Shown here piece after piece: positions 3,517 through 42,482 of a DNA stretch of 64,000 bases. Numbering within the stretch: the first letter of the stretch is position 1; each line of letters begins with the position of its first letter. Origin of the DNA: an uncultured Candidatus Saccharibacteria bacterium (GTDB lineage Bacteria; Patescibacteriota; CPR2_A; CAYFQT01). The notes beneath the pieces are model-generated. The model was not told the origin of the DNA, ran no database searches, and was given only the letters and a program-made list of their open reading frames with translations. Both the position numbers and the translations under genes were made by a program. The stretch is from positions 30,893 through 94,892 of the forward strand of contig CAYFQT010000038.1 of assembly GCA_964345445.1 (NCBI GenBank), read 5' to 3'.

Positions 3517-3665
3517 AAACTCTGTGGCTTTTTAACTACAGTTCCTTGAAGATATTAAAAGCTGTGGATAATTATATTTGTATTTTTTTTATTTTGTAGT
3601 ATAATAAATTTTGTTTATTGTAATTAAAATAAATAATTTATAGGTTTTAACTTTAGGAATAATCG

Positions 3666-5018
3666 ATGGAAGAAATCAATGAAAAAATTCCTCCTCAAAA
3701 TATTGAGGCTGAACAGTGTGTTTTAGGTTGTCTTTTGTTAGATAAAGAGTCAATTGTTAAGATAGCAGATATTTTAAGCCCTTCAGATTTTTATCGAGAG
3801 AATCATGGGTTAATATTTAAGGTAATTTCAGAATTATATGAGCAAAGAAATCCTATAGATTTAGTTACTACCTCTAATAAATTAGAAGAAGAAGGACAAT
3901 TGGAGCAAATAGGAGGAGCAAGTTACTTGACTGTATTAGTAAATAGTGTTCCTTCTGCTGCACATGTAACATATTATGCCGATATTGTTCAACATAAGGC
4001 AACATTAAGAAGATTAATTTCAGCAGCTAATGAAATTACATCATTAGGATTTGAGGAAAATAAAGATTTAGATAAAATTTTAGATAAAGCAGAACAAACT
4101 TTATTTTCTGTTTCTCAAAAATATCTCAAGCAAAATTTTATTTCCATTAAAGAAGTATTAACCGAATCCTTTGATAGAATTGACAAATTACATAAAGATA
4201 AAGGTACATTACGAGGTATTGCCACTGGTTTTGTGGAATTAGATAGAATTTTAGCCGGCCTGCAAGCTGCAGATTTAATTATTGTGGCTGGCCGTCCAGC
4301 AATGGGTAAAACTTGTCTTGCTTTGAATATTGCTCAACATATAACTTCAGAGGAAAATGTTCCAGTAGGTATTTTTAGTTTAGAAATGTCCAAAGAACAA
4401 TTAGTAGATAGATTAATTTGTTCAGAAGCAGGGGTAGATTCTTGGAAATTAAGAACAGGTAATTTAGCAGATGAGGATTTTCCTAAAATAGGCCATGCAA
4501 TGGGAGTGCTTTCTGAAGCTCCTTTGTTTATAGATGATTCTCCTAATGTTAATGCAATGGAGATTCGTACTAAAGCTCGTCGTCTTCAATCTGAACAAGG
4601 TTTAGGAATAATTATAGTAGATTATCTTCAGTTAATGCAAGGTCGTAAATTAAAAAGTGATATAAATAGAGTTCAAGAGATTTCCGATATTTCAAGGGCT
4701 CTGAAATCACTTGCTCGAGAAATTAATGTTCCAGTGGTTGCGGTATCTCAACTTTCTCGAGCAGTAGAAACAAGACCTGACAGAATTCCTCAACTTGCCG
4801 ATCTGAGAGAATCAGGTTCTATTGAGCAAGATGCAGATGTAGTAATGTTTATTTACAGAGAAGATTATTATAATAAAGATACAGAAAGAAAAAATGTTGC
4901 TGATATCTTTATTAAAAAGCATAGAAATGGTCCCACAGGTCAAATAGAATTATATTTTCAACCTGAGCAAATGAAGTTTTCTAATTTGGAAAGAAAAAGG
5001 GAAGGGGTAGAAATATAA
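3666..5018 (+). CDS. dnaB: replicative DNA helicase
   Basis: GRPAMGKT Walker A, IIVDYLQLM, SQLSR motifs typical of DnaB. Confidence 0.93.
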   Translation: MEEINEKIPPQNIEAEQCVLGCLLLDKESIVKIADILSPSDFYRENHGLIFKVISELYEQRNPIDLVTTSNKLEEEGQLEQIGGASYLTVLVNSVPSAAHVTYYADIVQHKATLRRLISAANEITSLGFEENKDLDKILDKAEQTLFSVSQKYLKQNFISIKEVLTESFDRIDKLHKDKGTLRGIATGFVELDRILAGLQAADLIIVAGRPAMGKTCLALNIAQHITSEENVPVGIFSLEMSKEQLVDRLICSEAGVDSWKLRTGNLADEDFPKIGHAMGVLSEAPLFIDDSPNVNAMEIRTKARRLQSEQGLGIIIVDYLQLMQGRKLKSDINRVQEISDISRALKSLAREINVPVVAVSQLSRAVETRPDRIPQLADLRESGSIEQDADVVMFIYREDYYNKDTERKNVADIFIKKHRNGPTGQIELYFQPEQMKFSNLERKREGVEI

Positions 5019-22331: not shown

Positions 22332-23726
22332 ATGGCTTTTAATTTGATGGAAAAAATTGTATCCCTATGTAAACGTCGAGGTTTTATATTTCCTTCCTCT
22401 GAGATTTATGGAGGAATTGGTGGATTTTGGGATTGGGGCCCATATGGAACAGAACTTAGAAATAATATAAAAAAAGCTTGGTGGAAAAATATAGTCCAAC
22501 AGCAAGATAATATTGTAGGTTTAGAGAGTTCCATTATTTCCAATCCCAAAGTTTGGGAAGCTTCAGGCCATACATCTTCCTTTGCTGATCCTTTGGTTGA
22601 TTGCAAAAAATGCAAAAAGAGATTTAGGGCTGATCATTTAATCCAGTCAATGGAGAAAAAGGAAGATGGGGTAGTTACCTCAGCAGAGATAGAAAAACTT
22701 AAAAAGGCCTTGAAGAAAGTTAGCTGTCCTGAATGTGGAGGAGAGCTGACCCAGCCAAGAAAATTTAATCTCCTGGTTCCTACTTATATTGGAGTTATAG
22801 AAGATGAAAAGTCAAAAACTTATCTAAGAGGAGAAACCTGTCAGGGTATATTTGTAGATTATGATTTAATTAGACAGTCTAGCCGGCTGAAAATTCCCTT
22901 TGGTATTGCTCAGATTGGTAAAGCTTTTAGGAATGAAATCACCCCTGGAAATTTTGTTTTTAGGTCTCGGGAATTTGAACAGATGGAATTGGAGTTTTTT
23001 ATAAACCCCAATGATGACAAAAAATGGTTTTCCTATTGGAAAAAGCAAAGATTAAAATGGTTTTTGGATTTAGGAGTGGAAAAAAAGAATTTAAGATTTC
23101 GTGATCACAAGAAAGATGAACTTGCTCATTATGCTAAGGAAGCAACTGATATTGAATACAAATTTCCTTTTGGCTGGAAAGAACTGGAAGGTGTTGCCAA
23201 CCGTACTGATTTTGATCTAAAACAACACTCTAAATATTCTGCAAAAGATTTAAGTTATTTTGATGAAGATACTAAAAAAAGATATATACCTTATGTAATA
23301 GAGCCTTCTTTGGGAGTAGATAGAGCAGCTTTAGTATTTCTATTAGATGCTTACCATGAAGTAAAAGGCGGAAGAACAAAAACAACCGAATCAATTAAGG
23401 AAAAAGAAGTGGTTTTAAAGCTGCATAAAGATCTAACTCCAATTAAAGTAGCAATTTTGCCTCTGTTACGCAAAGACCAGCTAATAAAGAAAACCAAGGA
23501 GATTTATGATTTGATGAAGAATCATTTTATGTCTGAATATGATGAAACTGGTTCAATAGGAAAGCGCTATCGCCGTCAAGATGAAATTGGTACTCCATAT
23601 TGTGTAACTATTGATTTTGATACTTTGAATGATAAAGCCGTCACTGTCCGTGATCGAGATTCAATGGTTCAAGATAGAATAAAGATTGAAAAGTTAGTAA
23701 AATTTTTATGTGAGAAATTAGAATAA
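22332..23726 (+). CDS. glyQS: glycine--tRNA ligase (dimeric GlyQS type)
   Basis: N-terminal KRRGFIFPSSEIYGGIGGFWDWGPYG, class II aaRS core, 464 aa. Confidence 0.92.
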   Translation: MAFNLMEKIVSLCKRRGFIFPSSEIYGGIGGFWDWGPYGTELRNNIKKAWWKNIVQQQDNIVGLESSIISNPKVWEASGHTSSFADPLVDCKKCKKRFRADHLIQSMEKKEDGVVTSAEIEKLKKALKKVSCPECGGELTQPRKFNLLVPTYIGVIEDEKSKTYLRGETCQGIFVDYDLIRQSSRLKIPFGIAQIGKAFRNEITPGNFVFRSREFEQMELEFFINPNDDKKWFSYWKKQRLKWFLDLGVEKKNLRFRDHKKDELAHYAKEATDIEYKFPFGWKELEGVANRTDFDLKQHSKYSAKDLSYFDEDTKKRYIPYVIEPSLGVDRAALVFLLDAYHEVKGGRTKTTESIKEKEVVLKLHKDLTPIKVAILPLLRKDQLIKKTKEIYDLMKNHFMSEYDETGSIGKRYRRQDEIGTPYCVTIDFDTLNDKAVTVRDRDSMVQDRIKIEKLVKFLCEKLE

Positions 23727-23898
23727 TATATCTATTTTATCTCTGCAATAGTGAAAGACCAAAATTGTTTTGTTTTTAATTTGTGGATAAGTGAAGGTTA
23801 GGAATAAGGAATAAGGAAAAAGGAATAAGGAAAAAATGGCTTTTCAAAGCCATTTTTTTATATTTAGGTATATAAATTATTTTTTACTTGACAAGATA

Positions 23899-23926
23899 TT
23901 GACAAATATTGAAAGTGGGGTATAAT
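23899..23926 (+). promoter_or_regulatory. consensus sigma70 promoter TTGACA-16-TATAAT for the mraZ/dcw operon
   Basis: TTGACA 23899-23904, TATAAT 23921-23926; a second TTGACA at 23888. Confidence 0.6.
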
Positions 23927-23986
23927 GGTGACAAAGATATAGATTGTGGATAAAAGTGGGGATAAGTGGTAGAAGCTGTGGATAAG
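23915..23986 (+). promoter_or_regulatory. MraZ-box-like direct repeats ((A/T)GTGG) at 10-bp periodicity
   Basis: GTGG at 23915, 23946, 23956, 23966 and 23978 (AAAGTGGGG x2, TGTGGATAA x2). Three of them equal the DnaA-box consensus TGTGGATAA. Confidence 0.5.
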
Positions 23987-24162
23987 CAGTAGCTAAAACA
24001 CACTAAAGTTACACTAATAAATCACTAAATTAATACTAAAAATAAAGATAGAGTTTTAACTTGTAAAAATACTTTAGTATTTTTACGAAAGAGGAGAAAC
24101 AAACTGAAAGCTGGAGTAATTGCCTATAAGGAAATTAGGAAAGCGGCAGGTTTGTTTGGACG

Positions 24163-24594
24163 ATGTTTATAGGAGAATTTACACATTCAGTTGATAGTAA
24201 AGGAAGATTGGCTGTTCCAGCCAAGTTTCGAAAAAAATTAGCCACAGGCGCTGTAGTTACTCGAGGCTTGGATGATTGTCTTTTTCTATATCCTAAAGTT
24301 GAATGGGAAAAACTAGCTAAAAAGTTATCCCAGCTTCCTATAAGTCAGAAGAATGCCAGGGCTTTTGCTAGATTAATGTTAGCAGGGGCTTATGATGTAG
24401 ATTTAGACAAACAGGGTAGAATAGTCATTCCTGCCTACCTGAGAAGATATGCTTCGATTAAAAATGAAACAGTCATAGCAGGACTTTATAGTAGATTGGA
24501 AATCTGGAGTACAGCTCGCTGGAATAAATATAAAAAAGGAGCAGAGGAAGAAAGTACTGATATTGCCGAACATCTGGGAGAGTTAGGTGTGTAA
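24163..24594 (+). CDS. mraZ: transcriptional regulator MraZ
   Basis: MFIGEFTHSVDSKGRLAVPAKFR N-terminus, two MraZ repeats. Confidence 0.92.
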   Translation: MFIGEFTHSVDSKGRLAVPAKFRKKLATGAVVTRGLDDCLFLYPKVEWEKLAKKLSQLPISQKNARAFARLMLAGAYDVDLDKQGRIVIPAYLRRYASIKNETVIAGLYSRLEIWSTARWNKYKKGAEEESTDIAEHLGELGV

Positions 24595-24802
24595 TATTAA
24601 AAATTTTTTGTTTGCTAGTAGCTAGTAGCCAGTTTTTTAAAAAATGGCTGTAGAGTTTATTTAAAGATGATTAAAAATTGAATACTCCGAAAACCTTCGG
24701 AGTAACCATTTGTTCACCTCCTTAAAGTTAAAACCCCACAAAAACAAAAATATTTTTTAAAACCCCACAGGCTGGCTACTAGTTTACAATATTATAAAAA
24801 AT

Positions 24803-25735
24803 ATGTCAGATGCTCAAAAACATATACCTGTTCTTTTAAAGGAAACATTAAATTTTTTAAATCCTCAACCAAATCAAAATTTTATTGATTGCACAGTAGG
24901 GGGAGGAGGACATTCTCAAGCTATTTTGTCTCACATAGCCCCTCGTGGTAAACTTTTAGGAATTGATAAAGATAAGGCGGCAATAGAAAAAGCAGAAAAG
25001 AATTTAAAGAAATATGAATCCAGATATATTCTTATAAGAGATAATTTTGTAAATTTAAAAAATATAGTTTCTGAATATAAATTTTTCAATGTAGATGGAA
25101 TTTTATTTGATTTAGGTATTTCCTCAATTCAGCTTTCCGATAAAAGAAGAGGGTTTTCATTCCTTTTCGATGCACCTTTGGATATGCGAATGGATCAAAG
25201 GAATATTCTTACTGCTTCAGATATTATAAATAATTGGGAAGAAGTGGATTTGATTAAAATTTTTAGAGATTATGGTGAGGAAAGATATGCAAGGAAGATT
25301 GCTCAAGCTATTGCTGATTTGAGAGCAAAAAATCCAATTACTCGGAGTTTGCAGTTAGTAGAGATAATTACTAAGATAAAGCCTCATAATAGAAGGATAC
25401 ATCCAGCAACAAAAGTTTTTCAGGCTTTAAGGATTGCTGTAAATAATGAGTTAGAGAATTTAAAGAATATATTACCAGATTGTCTATCTATCCTGGAAAA
25501 AGGAGGGAAAATTGCAGTGATTTCTTTTCATTCTAAAGAAGACAGAATTGTAAAAGATTTTTTTAGAAAAGAGTCAAAAGATTGTATCTGCCCTCCTAAA
25601 ACTTTAGTTTGTAGGTGCAAACATAAAGCAAAACTTAAAATAATAACTAAAAAGCCAATTACAACTACAAATAAAGAAATAAAACAGAATTTGAAAAGTC
25701 GCAGTGCTAAATTAAGAGTAGCCCAGAAGGTATAA
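24803..25735 (+). CDS. rsmH: 16S rRNA (cytosine1402-N4)-methyltransferase
   Basis: HIPVLL, GGGGHS SAM-binding motif. Confidence 0.93.
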   Translation: MSDAQKHIPVLLKETLNFLNPQPNQNFIDCTVGGGGHSQAILSHIAPRGKLLGIDKDKAAIEKAEKNLKKYESRYILIRDNFVNLKNIVSEYKFFNVDGILFDLGISSIQLSDKRRGFSFLFDAPLDMRMDQRNILTASDIINNWEEVDLIKIFRDYGEERYARKIAQAIADLRAKNPITRSLQLVEIITKIKPHNRRIHPATKVFQALRIAVNNELENLKNILPDCLSILEKGGKIAVISFHSKEDRIVKDFFRKESKDCICPPKTLVCRCKHKAKLKIITKKPITTTNKEIKQNLKSRSAKLRVAQKV

Positions 25736-37946: not shown

Positions 37947-38288
37947 ATGTGGTGGGCAATTTTAGGATTTGCTTTAGGAATAATTATAGGATTGTTTTTT
38001 ACTTTTTCTATTCCTATACAATATGCTCGATATACAGCAGTAGCTATATTAGCTGCTTTAGATTCTATTTTAGGGGCAGCAAAAGCAGACCTAGAAAATA
38101 GATATTCCAGTCAAATTTTTATCACTGGATTAATATTTAATATGGTTTTGGCAGCTGGAATTACTTTCTTAGGAGATAAATTAGGTTTAGATTTGTATAT
38201 TGCTGTGGTTGTAGCATTTACATTTAGAATGCTTTTGAATATTGGCAAAATCCGCCGTCATATTTTAGAGAGATTTAGAAAGAGATAA
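37947..38288 (+). CDS. sbp: small basic protein Sbp (DUF1290)
   Basis: IP..Y..Y...LAALD...G.....FN..LA..FLG..LG.DLY....F..R...NI..IRR pattern matches B. subtilis Sbp, which sits between divIB and ftsA. Confidence 0.7.
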   Translation: MWWAILGFALGIIIGLFFTFSIPIQYARYTAVAILAALDSILGAAKADLENRYSSQIFITGLIFNMVLAAGITFLGDKLGLDLYIAVVVAFTFRMLLNIGKIRRHILERFRKR

Positions 38289-38325
38289 AAAATAATTTGT
38301 ATTTTAAAATTTTTATATTGATAGT

Positions 38326-38414
38326 ATAGTTTTGCGAAGTAATGAAGAAGTAATGAAGGAGTACATAAGTATTATTAATTTTGAATGTTCTTTTAATTTA
38401 CTTCGCAAAACTAT
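38326..38414. repeat. 17-bp perfect inverted repeat (ATAGTTTTGCGAAGTAA / TTACTTCGCAAAACTAT) around a 55-nt loop
   Basis: The loop itself contains the direct repeat GAAGTAATGAAG x2. Confidence 0.7.
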
Positions 38415-38448
38415 CATTGTCCGACATATTTTCAAATGTAAAATAACA

Positions 38449-38478
38449 CCAGCAGAACCCCTTCCCTGCTGGTTTTTT
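38449..38478 (+). terminator. Rho-independent terminator closing the dcw operon
   Basis: CCAGCAG-AACCCCTTCC-CTGCTGG followed by TTTTTT. Confidence 0.6.
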
Positions 38479-38741
38479 ACACTAATTAAATATATTTTAT
38501 CTTAGAATTACTCTGATAAAATAATAAGACTTTTAGTAATAGAGTTTGCCAAAATTGGTGACTTTTTTAAAAAAAATTAAATTCTATCCCCTATTATGAT
38601 GAAACTTAGTATTTTTTTACTCCAGATCTCTATATTGCTGTTATATTGCTGTAGTGAGGGATTTTAATATAGTTCAGCAATAGCAATAATGTAGATTATT
38701 GAAGTGAAGGTGTTTGATTTTTAAAAAAATAATAAAAGATT

Positions 38742-39629: not shown

Positions 39630-42482
39630 TCAACCAGAGTCTGATCTTCCTTTGGACGAAATTTTTACCTCTTCTCCTTCTTTCAACTCATGTGTTTTAC
39701 TTTTTTCTTTTTGTTCTTTTTCTTCAGTTACTGAGTTTTGGGTCTTTTCTTTTGAAGATGAAAGAGTATCAGAAGGTTCTGTGGGTTTATGTGATATCTT
39801 AATTTCTTCTTTTTCTTTTATTGGCCTATGATGTATTATAGAAGGCTTTGCTTCTTTTTTTTCTTCAGCTATTTCTTCTTGAGGTTTTTCTTTTACTTTT
39901 ATACCTTCTTCTTGAGTAACTTCTTCTAAAATATCTTCTGCAGTTATTCTTACCTCTGGGTATTTTTCTACTCTAATAGTTTCTCTGGGTCTTTTTTCTT
40001 TAAATTTCTGAGGTTGAGTTTCTTCTTCGTTTTCCTCTTCTGTTTCTTCTATCCCTGCCCAACGAGCAATTTTTTCTTCTACTACATTTTTTGGGGTGCT
40101 ATATCTTTCTTGTGATAAAAGAATAACCTTTTCTTTATTTTTATTTTCCCCTTTGAGTGGAGGTAAAGTTTGAGCAGAAAAAGCAGGAGAAGTTACCCCA
40201 TTAATAGCAAGTTTTAAATAAATATTATATTTATCCAAATTTACTATATCAGTTTCATCAAAGACTGGGGCTACTTCTTTGGCTAAGAATGTTGCATCTG
40301 CTGCGCCTACTCTAAAGGAAATTAATGTTCCAATATTGCCAAAAACAGCATCACGAACTACTTCAGGCATTTGGGCTATATATTGGTTAGCTACTATTAA
40401 ATTTAATCCATATTTTCTTGCTTCAGATAATATTTTGGCAAATGATTCAGTAGCAAAGTTTTGAAACTCATCAACATATAGATAAAAATCTTTTCTCTGT
40501 TTTTCTGGGATGTCTACTCGACTCATAGCTGCTAACTGGAGTTTAGTAATCATCATTGCTCCTAAAAGAGAAGAATTGTCTTCCCCTATAGTTCCTTGAG
40601 CTAATTTGATTAATAATATTTTTCCTGAATCAATAACTTCTCGCATATCGATAGTGCTTTTAGGCTGCCCTATAATGTTTCTTATTGTTGCCGAAGATAT
40701 AAACTGCCCTACTTTGTTTTGAATTGGAGAAATTGCTTCTGTTACTAAACGAGGATTTGATTGATATCCAGGAAACTCTTGAGTCCAAAATCTTTTTACT
40801 TCTATATCGGTAATTTTCTTAACCACTTTTTTTCTAAATTTTTTATCAGTAAGCATTCGATTTACTGATAACATTGTAGAATTAGGATAATCTAACAAAG
40901 CTAATAAAGTATTTCTTAAAATATGTTCTAATCTAGGACCCCAGGTGAAAGCCCAGATTTTTTGAAAAATGGAAATTAATCCTGAACATATCAACCCTTT
41001 ATAGTCAGGGTCCACAGCTTCTAGTGGATTGAAAGCAATAGGATATTCTCGATCAGAAGGATCAAAGATAATTACATCATTTATTCTTTCAGAGGGAATG
41101 AAATTTAATATATCGTCAATTAGGTCTCCATGAGGGTCCACTACTCCTACTCCTTTTCCTGCTCGGATATCAGAAATAGCCATATTTCTCAACATATTAG
41201 TCTTGCCCATCCCAGTTTTACCAATTAAATACATATGTTTTCTTCTGTCATCAGTTTTTATTCCAAATTTTTGTCTTATATGTCTAAAGTTTGTCTCGGC
41301 AAATAAAGTTAGTTCGCTAGATGGAATAACTTTTTCTTCAATTGGTAAGTTATCAGGAGGTTCTCCTTTTTTAGATTTTGTCCAAGCGATTGTGGGAGTT
41401 TCTACTCCTATAGTTGGAAGATGAAATATTGAAGCTAATTCTTCAGTATTTAAAACAAAGCCAGAGTCGGAAAACAAACGTGCTTTATAGTCTTGAAGAA
41501 AATTTTCACCTTCATAAGTTTTGTCTGATTTGAAACCATTTAGGTTAGCGGTTGAAAATTGTTTAAATGTTCCAATAAGAGATTGAAGATGAGGATTTAC
41601 AATTTGTCCTTTCTTGCAAACATATGCTGCTCTTATTTTTGTATCAAAACCAAGTTTGGATACTTTTTCCTCAATAGCCGAAAGCTGAGTCTCTTGAGCA
41701 GATGAGAGTTGAGGAGGTCCGGAGGCACTTTCTTCAGTGGTTCCTGGTGTAATCAAAGAAGTAATTTGTCCTAAAACTTTAGCTAAAAATCCAAAAGCTG
41801 TTCCTATGCCAAAAGCTTCTGGGTTTCCACCAGCTTTTACTATGTCTATATAAGAAAGACCTTTTTTTTGCCATTCTTCCCCTGAAGGACGAACGAGTAT
41901 TTGAATCCAAATTTGTTCATTATTTTCTTTTAATTTTCCTAAAACCCCAGTGATTCCTGCCAGAGGATCTACTTCGAAATCAGGAAAGGTTTTAATAGGA
42001 AAAAAATCTAATTTGTTTAAGAGAAGTTGAGTGCCCATAATTTGTTTTTCTTTTAAATCAATCTCAGTGTAATCAGGTACTTTTTCAATTTCTACTTCAG
42101 GATATTGGGCATAAATTTGTCCTTCCACAAAATCTCTTAGATGTTCTGGAACCCAAATAAAAAATCCAATTTTTCCATTTGTTGAAGCAATTTCAAAACT
42201 AATGTGTTCTTGTAATGTTCCTTCCAGAAATCTTTTTTTAGTAGGTTTATAAATTCCATGTAGAGAAGCAAACATCATTTCTGCTGCAGTAGGTCCTTTT
42301 TCATTTTCTTTTGGAATATACAAAGATAAAAGAACGTATTTTTGTTGAGAAACCCAGTTTAATTTTCTACGGCTTAAAAAAGACAAAAATAAAAGTAGAG
42401 GTACTAGAAACCATATACCCCAAAATAAAAATTTACCAGTTTGTGGTAATATTTGGCTTAAAATTTTAAATAAGCCTTCCAT
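39630..42482 (-). CDS. membrane-anchored P-loop NTPase of the type IV coupling protein (TraD/TraG/VirD4; FtsK-HerA superfamily) type, with long Glu/Lys-rich C-terminal tail
   Basis: N-terminal TM (FLFWGIWFLVPLLLFLSFL), Walker A GKTGMGKT, Walker B YLYVDEFQNF about 240 aa later, ANQYIAQ block, 220-aa low-complexity EK-rich tail. Confidence 0.7.
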   Translation of the reverse strand: MEGLFKILSQILPQTGKFLFWGIWFLVPLLLFLSFLSRRKLNWVSQQKYVLLSLYIPKENEKGPTAAEMMFASLHGIYKPTKKRFLEGTLQEHISFEIASTNGKIGFFIWVPEHLRDFVEGQIYAQYPEVEIEKVPDYTEIDLKEKQIMGTQLLLNKLDFFPIKTFPDFEVDPLAGITGVLGKLKENNEQIWIQILVRPSGEEWQKKGLSYIDIVKAGGNPEAFGIGTAFGFLAKVLGQITSLITPGTTEESASGPPQLSSAQETQLSAIEEKVSKLGFDTKIRAAYVCKKGQIVNPHLQSLIGTFKQFSTANLNGFKSDKTYEGENFLQDYKARLFSDSGFVLNTEELASIFHLPTIGVETPTIAWTKSKKGEPPDNLPIEEKVIPSSELTLFAETNFRHIRQKFGIKTDDRRKHMYLIGKTGMGKTNMLRNMAISDIRAGKGVGVVDPHGDLIDDILNFIPSERINDVIIFDPSDREYPIAFNPLEAVDPDYKGLICSGLISIFQKIWAFTWGPRLEHILRNTLLALLDYPNSTMLSVNRMLTDKKFRKKVVKKITDIEVKRFWTQEFPGYQSNPRLVTEAISPIQNKVGQFISSATIRNIIGQPKSTIDMREVIDSGKILLIKLAQGTIGEDNSSLLGAMMITKLQLAAMSRVDIPEKQRKDFYLYVDEFQNFATESFAKILSEARKYGLNLIVANQYIAQMPEVVRDAVFGNIGTLISFRVGAADATFLAKEVAPVFDETDIVNLDKYNIYLKLAINGVTSPAFSAQTLPPLKGENKNKEKVILLSQERYSTPKNVVEEKIARWAGIEETEEENEEETQPQKFKEKRPRETIRVEKYPEVRITAEDILEEVTQEEGIKVKEKPQEEIAEEKKEAKPSIIHHRPIKEKEEIKISHKPTEPSDTLSSSKEKTQNSVTEEKEQKEKSKTHELKEGEEVKISSKGRSDSG

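Follow-up and report, generated by a model that had tools for sequence, protein, structure and literature searches.

DnaA-consensus boxes interleaved with a predicted MraZ operator at a Patescibacterial mraZ promoter

Introduction

The repressor MraZ recognises short repeats upstream of its own gene, which take the form GTGG[A/T]G in three copies in Bacillus subtilis (bioRxiv 10.1101/2022.02.09.479790) and AAAGTG[T/G] in four copies in the Mollicutes (PMC8475190). Cryo-electron microscopy of the Mycoplasma genitalium protein resolved an octamer on four boxes, with K13, R15 and R86 as the main contacts to GTG(T/G) (PMC12957436). The 196 nt that we read upstream of Escherichia coli mraZ hold three GTGGG repeats with a 10-bp period, AGTGGGAAAT-TGTGGGGCAA-AGTGGGAATA, and no exact DnaA consensus. 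Here we analyse the equivalent region, positions 23780-23990, of a 64,000-nt stretch of contig CAYFQT010000038.1 from an uncultured Candidatus Saccharibacteria bacterium (hereafter the window), where GTGG repeats surround the promoter of mraZ and are interleaved with exact matches to the binding consensus of the replication initiator DnaA. We regard the region with high confidence, on the basis of its sequence and of comparison with relatives, as a sigma-70-type promoter combined with the MraZ autorepression operator of an mraZ-led dcw operon.

The coupling of replication to division is a long-standing question in bacteria, and direct links from DnaA to division have been found in Caulobacter, where DnaA controls ftsZ and murD (bioRxiv 10.1101/2025.02.22.639668). 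In E. coli, DnaA occupies mostly pairs of boxes 2-3 bp apart in vivo (PMC11317965), and a DnaA-box cluster has been defined as at least three boxes with a mean spacing below 100 bp (quoted in PMC7561715). The two regulators have been reported to meet on one sequence at the mioC promoter of E. coli, where, according to the passage in PMC4446571 that cites Eraso 2014, an MraZ site overlaps a DnaA box. The Patescibacteria are ultra-small cells with tiny genomes, few transcription factors and an essentially unstudied cell cycle. Our literature search returned nothing that connects MraZ operators to DnaA boxes at the mraZ promoter, nor any paper on DnaA boxes of the Patescibacteria. The kind of MraZ operator described below is already known, while no published description was found of a DnaA-consensus motif class conserved at Patescibacterial mraZ promoters.

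Architecture of the mraZ promoter and operator

The window has a GC content of 30%, and the closest homologues of its MraZ all belong to the Patescibacteria (candidate phyla radiation). The studied region belongs to the 436 nt that separate the gene of a class II aminoacyl-tRNA synthetase (22332-23726), probably GlyRS (glyS-like, as judged also from the L085 orthologue), from mraZ (24163-24594, plus strand; Pfam MraZ, 1.2e-42), the gene for the cognate repressor. Behind mraZ, the dcw cluster continues with rsmH, ftsL, ftsI, mur ligases, mraY, ftsW, murG, murC, murB, ftsQ and a DUF1290 gene up to position 38288, gene identities having been taken also from orthologues in relatives. The encoded MraZ carries both DXXXR motifs (D11..R15 and D82..R86) as well as K13, and D11, K13, R15, D82 and R86, the residues in contact with GTG(T/G) in the M. 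genitalium complexes (PMC12957436), are invariant across 27 homologues; it also matches the solved Mycoplasma MraZ structures at 2.6e-20. For comparison we assembled 80 Patescibacterial mraZ loci from species-level genomes together with two closer relatives, giving 82 related loci and 1.14 Mb in total.

A promoter consisting of TTGACA (23899-23904) and TATAAT (23921-23926) on the plus strand, separated by 16 nt, is the sole 12/12 promoter match within 23500-25000. The mraZ start codon at 24163 lies 237 nt downstream of TATAAT, in agreement with the distance of about 240 nt originally predicted, and we infer a transcript start near 23933. The second TTGACA that had also been predicted was read directly at 23888-23893 (plus strand), 11 nt 5' of the -35 hexamer, and is kept in L085, a relative with 90% identity to the window. 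It cannot serve TATAAT because it lies 27 nt away, which is too far; many relatives carry GTGGTTGACA at this place. The -10 is kept in relatives as TAnAAT, and a GTGG stands 2 nt before it in 75 of 83 mraZ upstream regions. With this GTGG as the anchor and zero point of a slot numbering, TTGAC is found at -17/-16 in 60 of 75 relatives. On the 5' side, a terminator scan identified a hairpin with flanking A- and T-runs at 23831-23858 (AAAAAATGGCTTTTCAAAGCCATTTTTT), which is the intrinsic terminator of the synthetase gene and the 5' boundary of the mraZ promoter region. Similar hairpins of the form aaaaaatggc...gccattttttt occur at the equivalent place in L007, L009, L028 and L064.

The first GTGG core begins at 23915, inside the promoter spacer, and four more follow downstream of it at 23946, 23956, 23966 and 23978, with gaps of 31, 10, 10 and 12 bp, exactly at the positions first reported. 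The downstream boxes had been placed at +20 to +60; the boxes are there, while their numbering shifts slightly to about +14 to +46 if transcription starts near 23933. The anchor core (23915-23918, slot 0, plus strand) is a predicted MraZ box overlapping the RNA polymerase site, and it is fused to the -10 as GTGGnnTAnAAT in 75 of 83 loci. The following box, B1 (23945-23953, plus strand), reads TGTGGATAA(AA), with its GTGG at 23946 in slot +31, and is at once a predicted MraZ box and an exact DnaA consensus; this slot is occupied in 71 of 75 loci with the consensus aaaaGTGG[A/G][T/G]AAAA. Box B2 (23956-23965, plus strand; GTGGGGATAA) occupies slot +41 and is followed by an extra MraZ-type box at slot +51 (GTGG at 23966-23969, plus strand), a slot used by 7 of 75 loci, L085 among them. 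At its 3' end the array has the conserved DnaA-type box B3 (23976-23986, plus strand; CTGTGGATAAG) in slot +63.

Conservation of this spacing, which had been suggested as a check on the MraZ-operator reading of the 10, 10 and 12-bp phasing, is evident across the 82 related loci. Seven GTGG slots recur in relatives (-21, 0, +20/21, +30/31, +40/41, +51 and +62/63), and although they make up only 15% of the positions from -30 to +70 they hold 281 of the 313 GTGG found there. All slots are multiples of about 10.4 bp and thus share one helical face. The window and L085 occupy identical slots (0, +31, +41, +51 and +63), and in relatives the GTGG of slot -21 is fused to the -35 as GTGGTTGACA. Within the window, GTGG-N6-GTGG occurs three times against 0.17 expected, two of the three being in the mraZ leader, and the triple form of this repeat is unique. 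The array stands 185-250 nt from the mraZ start codon. We take the promoter and operator as established from sequence and comparison, namely from the phasing, the repeats and the contact residues of the protein.

As in the described MraZ operators, these are GTGG-core direct repeats with a 10-bp period that stand immediately 5' of mraZ and overlap both the promoter and the inferred start. Arrays described to date have three to four contiguous repeats; the Patescibacterial one is longer and more interrupted, with up to seven slots from -21 to +63 and skipped turns (gaps of 21, 31, 10 and 22 bp). The MraZ operator is extended in this way to a phased array that includes the -35 and the -10, which bears on how octamers or dodecamers of MraZ wrap DNA.

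DnaA-consensus boxes in the window and in related loci

The original prediction had counted four exact DnaA-consensus 9-mers in the window, three of them within about 200 bp. This count holds: TGTGGATAA occurs at 3563, 23782, 23945 and 23977, in each case on the plus strand, against 0.57 copies expected, and none of 100 shuffles reached four. Three copies fall within 204 bp. The enrichment is limited to the exact consensus, as neither one-mismatch boxes (25 versus 19 expected) nor the relaxed form TTWTNCACA (8 versus 7.8) are enriched in the window.

The upstream box (23782-23790, plus strand) is an exact match 133 nt 5' of the -10-adjacent GTGG, between the stop codon of the glyS-like gene (23726) and the terminator of that gene. 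In L085 its block TTTGTGGATAAGT has been kept while the flanks diverged, and relatives carry equivalent upstream boxes, mostly inverted, at -95 to -210. The T at position -1 of B1 is retained in the close relatives L085 and L086, and the counterpart of B3 in L085 reads TGTGGACAA. B2 contains TGGGGATAA, an 8/9 DnaA-like match located 3 bp after B1, and the two form the pair TGTGGATAA-aag-TGGGGATAA (9/9 and 8/9), similar in its 3-bp gap to the sites occupied by E. coli DnaA in vivo. Distances of 163 and 32 bp separate the three exact boxes, and the resulting mean of 97.5 bp is marginal against the cluster limit of 100 bp. As a separate observation, an imperfect tandem repeat (AGGAATA/AGGAAAA)n at 23799-23835, between the upstream box and the terminator hairpin, is diverged in L085.

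Across the related loci, the exact 9-mer is concentrated upstream of mraZ, with 55 copies in 47.5 kb (600 nt per locus) and 11 copies in the other 1.09 Mb, an enrichment of about 100-fold. It is present in 44 of 78 independent sequence clusters as opposed to 2 of 320 random control windows. An unbiased count of all 9-mers between -300 and -42 ranks TGTGGATAA/TTATCCACA first, in 27 of 74 loci and above poly-T terminator words. Two of the few occurrences outside mraZ upstream regions (L030:1040 and L046:1407) overlap a promoter -10 (TATAATGTGGATAA) before a gene pair that resembles rplJ-rplL by its N-terminal sequences.

An alternative to DnaA is an operator for MraZ alone, in which all boxes are MraZ sites and the DnaA match is a by-product of GTGG followed by an A/T-rich ATAA spacer. 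This is consistent with the three downstream DnaA-like boxes, all of which have their GTGG in a phased slot, and with a B3 that keeps a constant distance from B2. Plain MraZ boxes also have conserved spacers (GTGGATAAAA and GTGGGGATAA), and in E. coli the MraZ repeats end in GTGGGAATAA, which is how the third of them reads. It leaves unexplained, however, 23 copies in the related loci that are inverted relative to the direct-repeat array, out of phase with it and located 95-210 nt upstream as TTATCCACA, often just before the terminator of the upstream gene or 15 nt before a second TTGACA. Enriched single-base variants of these inverted copies are found at position 3 (A>T in six, A>G in three), position 5 (C>A in four, C>G in three) and position 6 (C>A in four), with none at positions 2, 4 and 9 and one and two copies at positions 7 and 8; at the level of sequence this pattern corresponds to TTWTNCACA, the classical degeneracy of DnaA boxes. 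Two of the enriched variants, TTATGCACA and TTATCAACA, disrupt the GTG(G/T) core, and the variant spectrum has GTGC and GTTG in it, which should not be tolerated by the contacts of MraZ and for which an MraZ-only operator offers no explanation.

The base at position 9 provides a further distinction. The strict A that the inverted upstream copies have there is not accounted for by MraZ, as plain boxes of the array show a preference for the opposite base, with A before GTGG: AGTGGATAA is found 32 times in array orientation and never inverted. The 8/9 form seen in B2 likewise occurs in 32 copies in array orientation and one inverted in the related loci. Moreover, the reported base contacts of MraZ are approximately limited to GTG(T/G) and one by Ser17 (PMC12957436). 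We consider an operator for MraZ alone doubtful, though it retains an appreciable share of the probability because the array DnaA-type boxes have an in-phase GTGG and the B3-B2 distance is fixed. If DnaA does not bind here, there is a strong sequence constraint on MraZ operators beyond GTGG that current structures do not explain.

A third Patescibacterial transcription factor, neither DnaA nor MraZ, could also read (C)TGTGGATAA(C). The 11 copies in 1.09 Mb elsewhere make the motif nearly exclusive to mraZ upstream regions, which is narrow for a global regulator such as DnaA. Against such a factor stands the close agreement with DnaA sites. Among the 27 loci with a box at +63, GTGG is preceded by T in 20; of the four bases after it, the first and third are A in all 27, the second is T in 21 and the fourth is A in 25, and the next base is C in 18. 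The resulting consensus CTGTGGATAAC is identical to the 11-mer of the E. coli oriC boxes R1 and R4. This identity and the TTWTNCACA degeneracy make DnaA the economical candidate, and no candidate regulator is encoded beside the site; we rate a third factor as quite improbable. The likeness to R1 and R4 concerns the B3 consensus, the mraZ context being otherwise different in that it is not an origin.

The proposal that the array doubles as a DnaA-box cluster therefore stands in that enrichment, occurrence in both orientations and DnaA-type degeneracy go beyond coincidence, while binding by DnaA is a prediction made from these features. In E. coli, DnaA-box operators such as those of dnaA, mioC and nrdAB likewise have one to three exact copies of TTATCCACA near a promoter in either orientation. 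They differ from the predicted boxes described here, which lie inside the array of another regulator at the head of the whole dcw operon and show conservation throughout a phylum-level radiation. The mioC site, as far as it is described in the source cited above, resembles the window in that the specificities of MraZ and DnaA overlap on one sequence (here judged from the sequence), but it is a DnaA-controlled promoter beside oriC that is secondarily bound by MraZ, whereas the window has an mraZ promoter with a DnaA consensus far from any origin.

Two arrangements in relatives were recorded in addition. In L004, L009, L010, L028 and L064, TTATCCACA stands 15 nt 5' of a second TTGACA, followed by a terminator-like hairpin and then by the main mraZ promoter; this arrangement lies 100-210 nt upstream of the -10-adjacent GTGG and may represent a short upstream transcript or a decoy promoter. 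In L078 (9413-10000), a 140-aa open reading frame (ORF) stands between the conserved mraZ promoter and operator, with TTATCCACA just before a terminator, and mraZ itself.

The fourth exact box of the window, gCTGTGGATAAt at 3563-3571 (plus strand), lies between dnaX and dnaB (ORF 3666-5018), about 30 nt upstream of a TATAAT. It is present upstream of dnaB as first noted, but its conservation is not borne out: in a metagenome scan with the window DnaB, an exact box was found at most 400 nt upstream in only 3 of 80 DnaB loci, which are mostly of 35-71% GC and probably not Patescibacteria, and which also served as a negative control for the enrichment at mraZ. Membership of this box in a conserved DnaA regulon is unsupported, and it may be lineage-specific or due to chance.

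Predicted regulation by MraZ and DnaA

We lean slightly towards a composite element, in which MraZ would repress the dcw operon through the phased GTGG repeats and DnaA would bind its consensus boxes as an additional input. For the MraZ part our confidence is high: oligomers of MraZ would assemble on the one-face cores at 23915, 23946, 23956, 23966 and 23978, from the promoter spacer to about +46, and would block the binding or escape of RNA polymerase, leading to autorepression of the operon as in E. coli, B. subtilis and Mycoplasma. For DnaA we put the chance at even or marginally better that it binds the TGTGGATAA boxes at 23782, B1 (23945) and B3 (23977), a second, conserved class of motif that is interleaved with the array and flanks it. 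With DnaA bound both 3' of the start and 5' of the -35, dcw transcription would become linked to the DnaA status of the cell. Bound at B3, B1(-B2) and 23782, it could provide an input on replication status or compete with MraZ for shared cores, and sites 3' of the transcription start would favour repression. Since each DnaA-type box contains an MraZ GTGG core, the two proteins could compete or cooperate on the same DNA.

Enrichment, orientation, degeneracy and identity to R1 and R4 together make a DnaA input to the dcw promoter likely but unproven. More tentatively, the predicted sites may be read by two proteins, MraZ through the phased GTGG and DnaA through TGTGGATAA and the inverted upstream boxes, so that replication initiation would be hard-wired to division; we see this as possible, at somewhat less than an even chance. 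The sequence design would then serve both the 10-bp register of MraZ and the 12-bp register of a DnaA pair. A DnaA consensus inside a dcw MraZ operator amounts to a concrete hypothesis about two proteins on one 200-bp fragment.

Several points weigh against a role for DnaA. Recognition of TTATCCACA by Patescibacterial DnaA is presumed from the general conservation of DnaA domain IV. Within the array, no DnaA-type box lacks an in-phase GTGG, and B3 behaves like an array member in its fixed distance of 22 bp from B2; B1, and perhaps B3 as well, could be MraZ boxes in which an A/T-rich spacer completes the DnaA consensus by chance. The exact box is found in only about 56% of clusters and is not universal. 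The pairing signal is modest, since only 8 of 43 upstream boxes have a second box 2-3 bp away that matches at 6/9 or better, although the upstream regions of L066 and L073 carry TGTGGATAA-nnn-TGTTGATAA, which fits the 2-3 bp pairing. Lastly, the genome-wide DnaA maps of B. subtilis are not known to include mraZ.

Replication context of the locus

Exact DnaA boxes clustered in an AT-rich intergenic region could also mark the chromosomal replication origin or its neighbourhood, and the region had been proposed as an origin-proximal element, with GC skew as the suggested check. Throughout 1-38 kb the skew keeps its positive sign; it ranges from +0.15 to +0.31 across 20-28 kb and is unchanged at 23.9 kb, and the genes flanking the mraZ promoter are co-directional. 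Of 38 relatives, 36 have a positive skew to either side of mraZ, and none shows an origin-like one. A PROSITE-like signature and phmmer with a B. subtilis DnaA query detected no homologue of DnaA in the window or up to 10 kb from mraZ in the 82 loci, and neither dnaA nor oriC was found in the window or among 162 fetched loci. The sole weak match to DnaA, in L147, was discarded as an IstB/DnaC-like ATPase. Reading by eye only, no DnaA-trio, 13-mer run or repeated AT-rich unwinding element was evident after 23985. On the skew in the window and in the 38 relatives and the absence of dnaA near mraZ, we reject an origin or origin-proximal element, to which we attach next to no probability.

The only skew switch in the window is at about 38.3-38.7 kb, roughly 14 kb from mraZ, where the skew passes from about +0.2 to about -0.1. 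The switch is terminus-like because the genes converge there, changing from the plus to the minus strand, and the cumulative skew reaches its maximum. The nearness of mraZ to this switch would imply late replication, which would suit a DnaA titration or reactivation site comparable to datA, DARS or the B. subtilis clusters, tuning initiation rather than dcw transcription. Three consensus boxes in 204 bp outside any origin, with a mean spacing of about 98 bp that borders the three-box definition quoted in PMC7561715, are also in keeping with titration. Two to four boxes are few for this purpose, however, and they keep constant distances from the promoter elements (B3 at +63, others at -31/-41), as is typical of a transcriptional site. 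We consider titration improbable and continue to favour, if slightly, an input of DnaA to the promoter.

Some features around the skew switch are noted for completeness. The gap at about 38290-38740 contains an inverted repeat, GTTTTGCGAAGTAA...TTACTTCGCAAAAC. Just past the switch, a 950-aa ORF on the minus strand (39630-42482) carries the type IV secretion coupling protein domains TrwB_AAD_bind and TraG-D_C, and the ORF beside it has HARE-HTH and sigma-70 region 4 domains.

Leader and intergenic features

Apart from one tRNA, the window has no Rfam match at the gathering threshold, and a search for a structured RNA in the leader returned nothing credible in Rfam at E<=1 across 23700-24850. 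The leader (23990-24162) contains a perfect 12-bp hairpin at 24061-24088 (GUAAAAAUACUU/UAGUAUUUUUAC) followed by AGAGGAG, and the fold from the inferred start at 23933 to just past the ATG has a z of -3.6. About 120 nt of the leader are absent from L085, and the leaders of relatives measure between about 20 and about 420 nt.

The 208-nt spacer between mraZ and rsmH (24595-24802) has no Rfam match and forms a strong RNA fold, with a minimum free energy of -49.5 kcal/mol and a z of -5.5. It includes an 11-nt perfect inverted repeat, CTAGTAGCCAG / CTGGCTACTAG, around a GC hairpin at 24683-24704 that is terminator-like on both strands. Two copies of CCCCAC (GTGGGG on the minus strand), spaced by 30 nt, also lie within this inverted repeat. 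In L085 this spacer is only 125 nt long.

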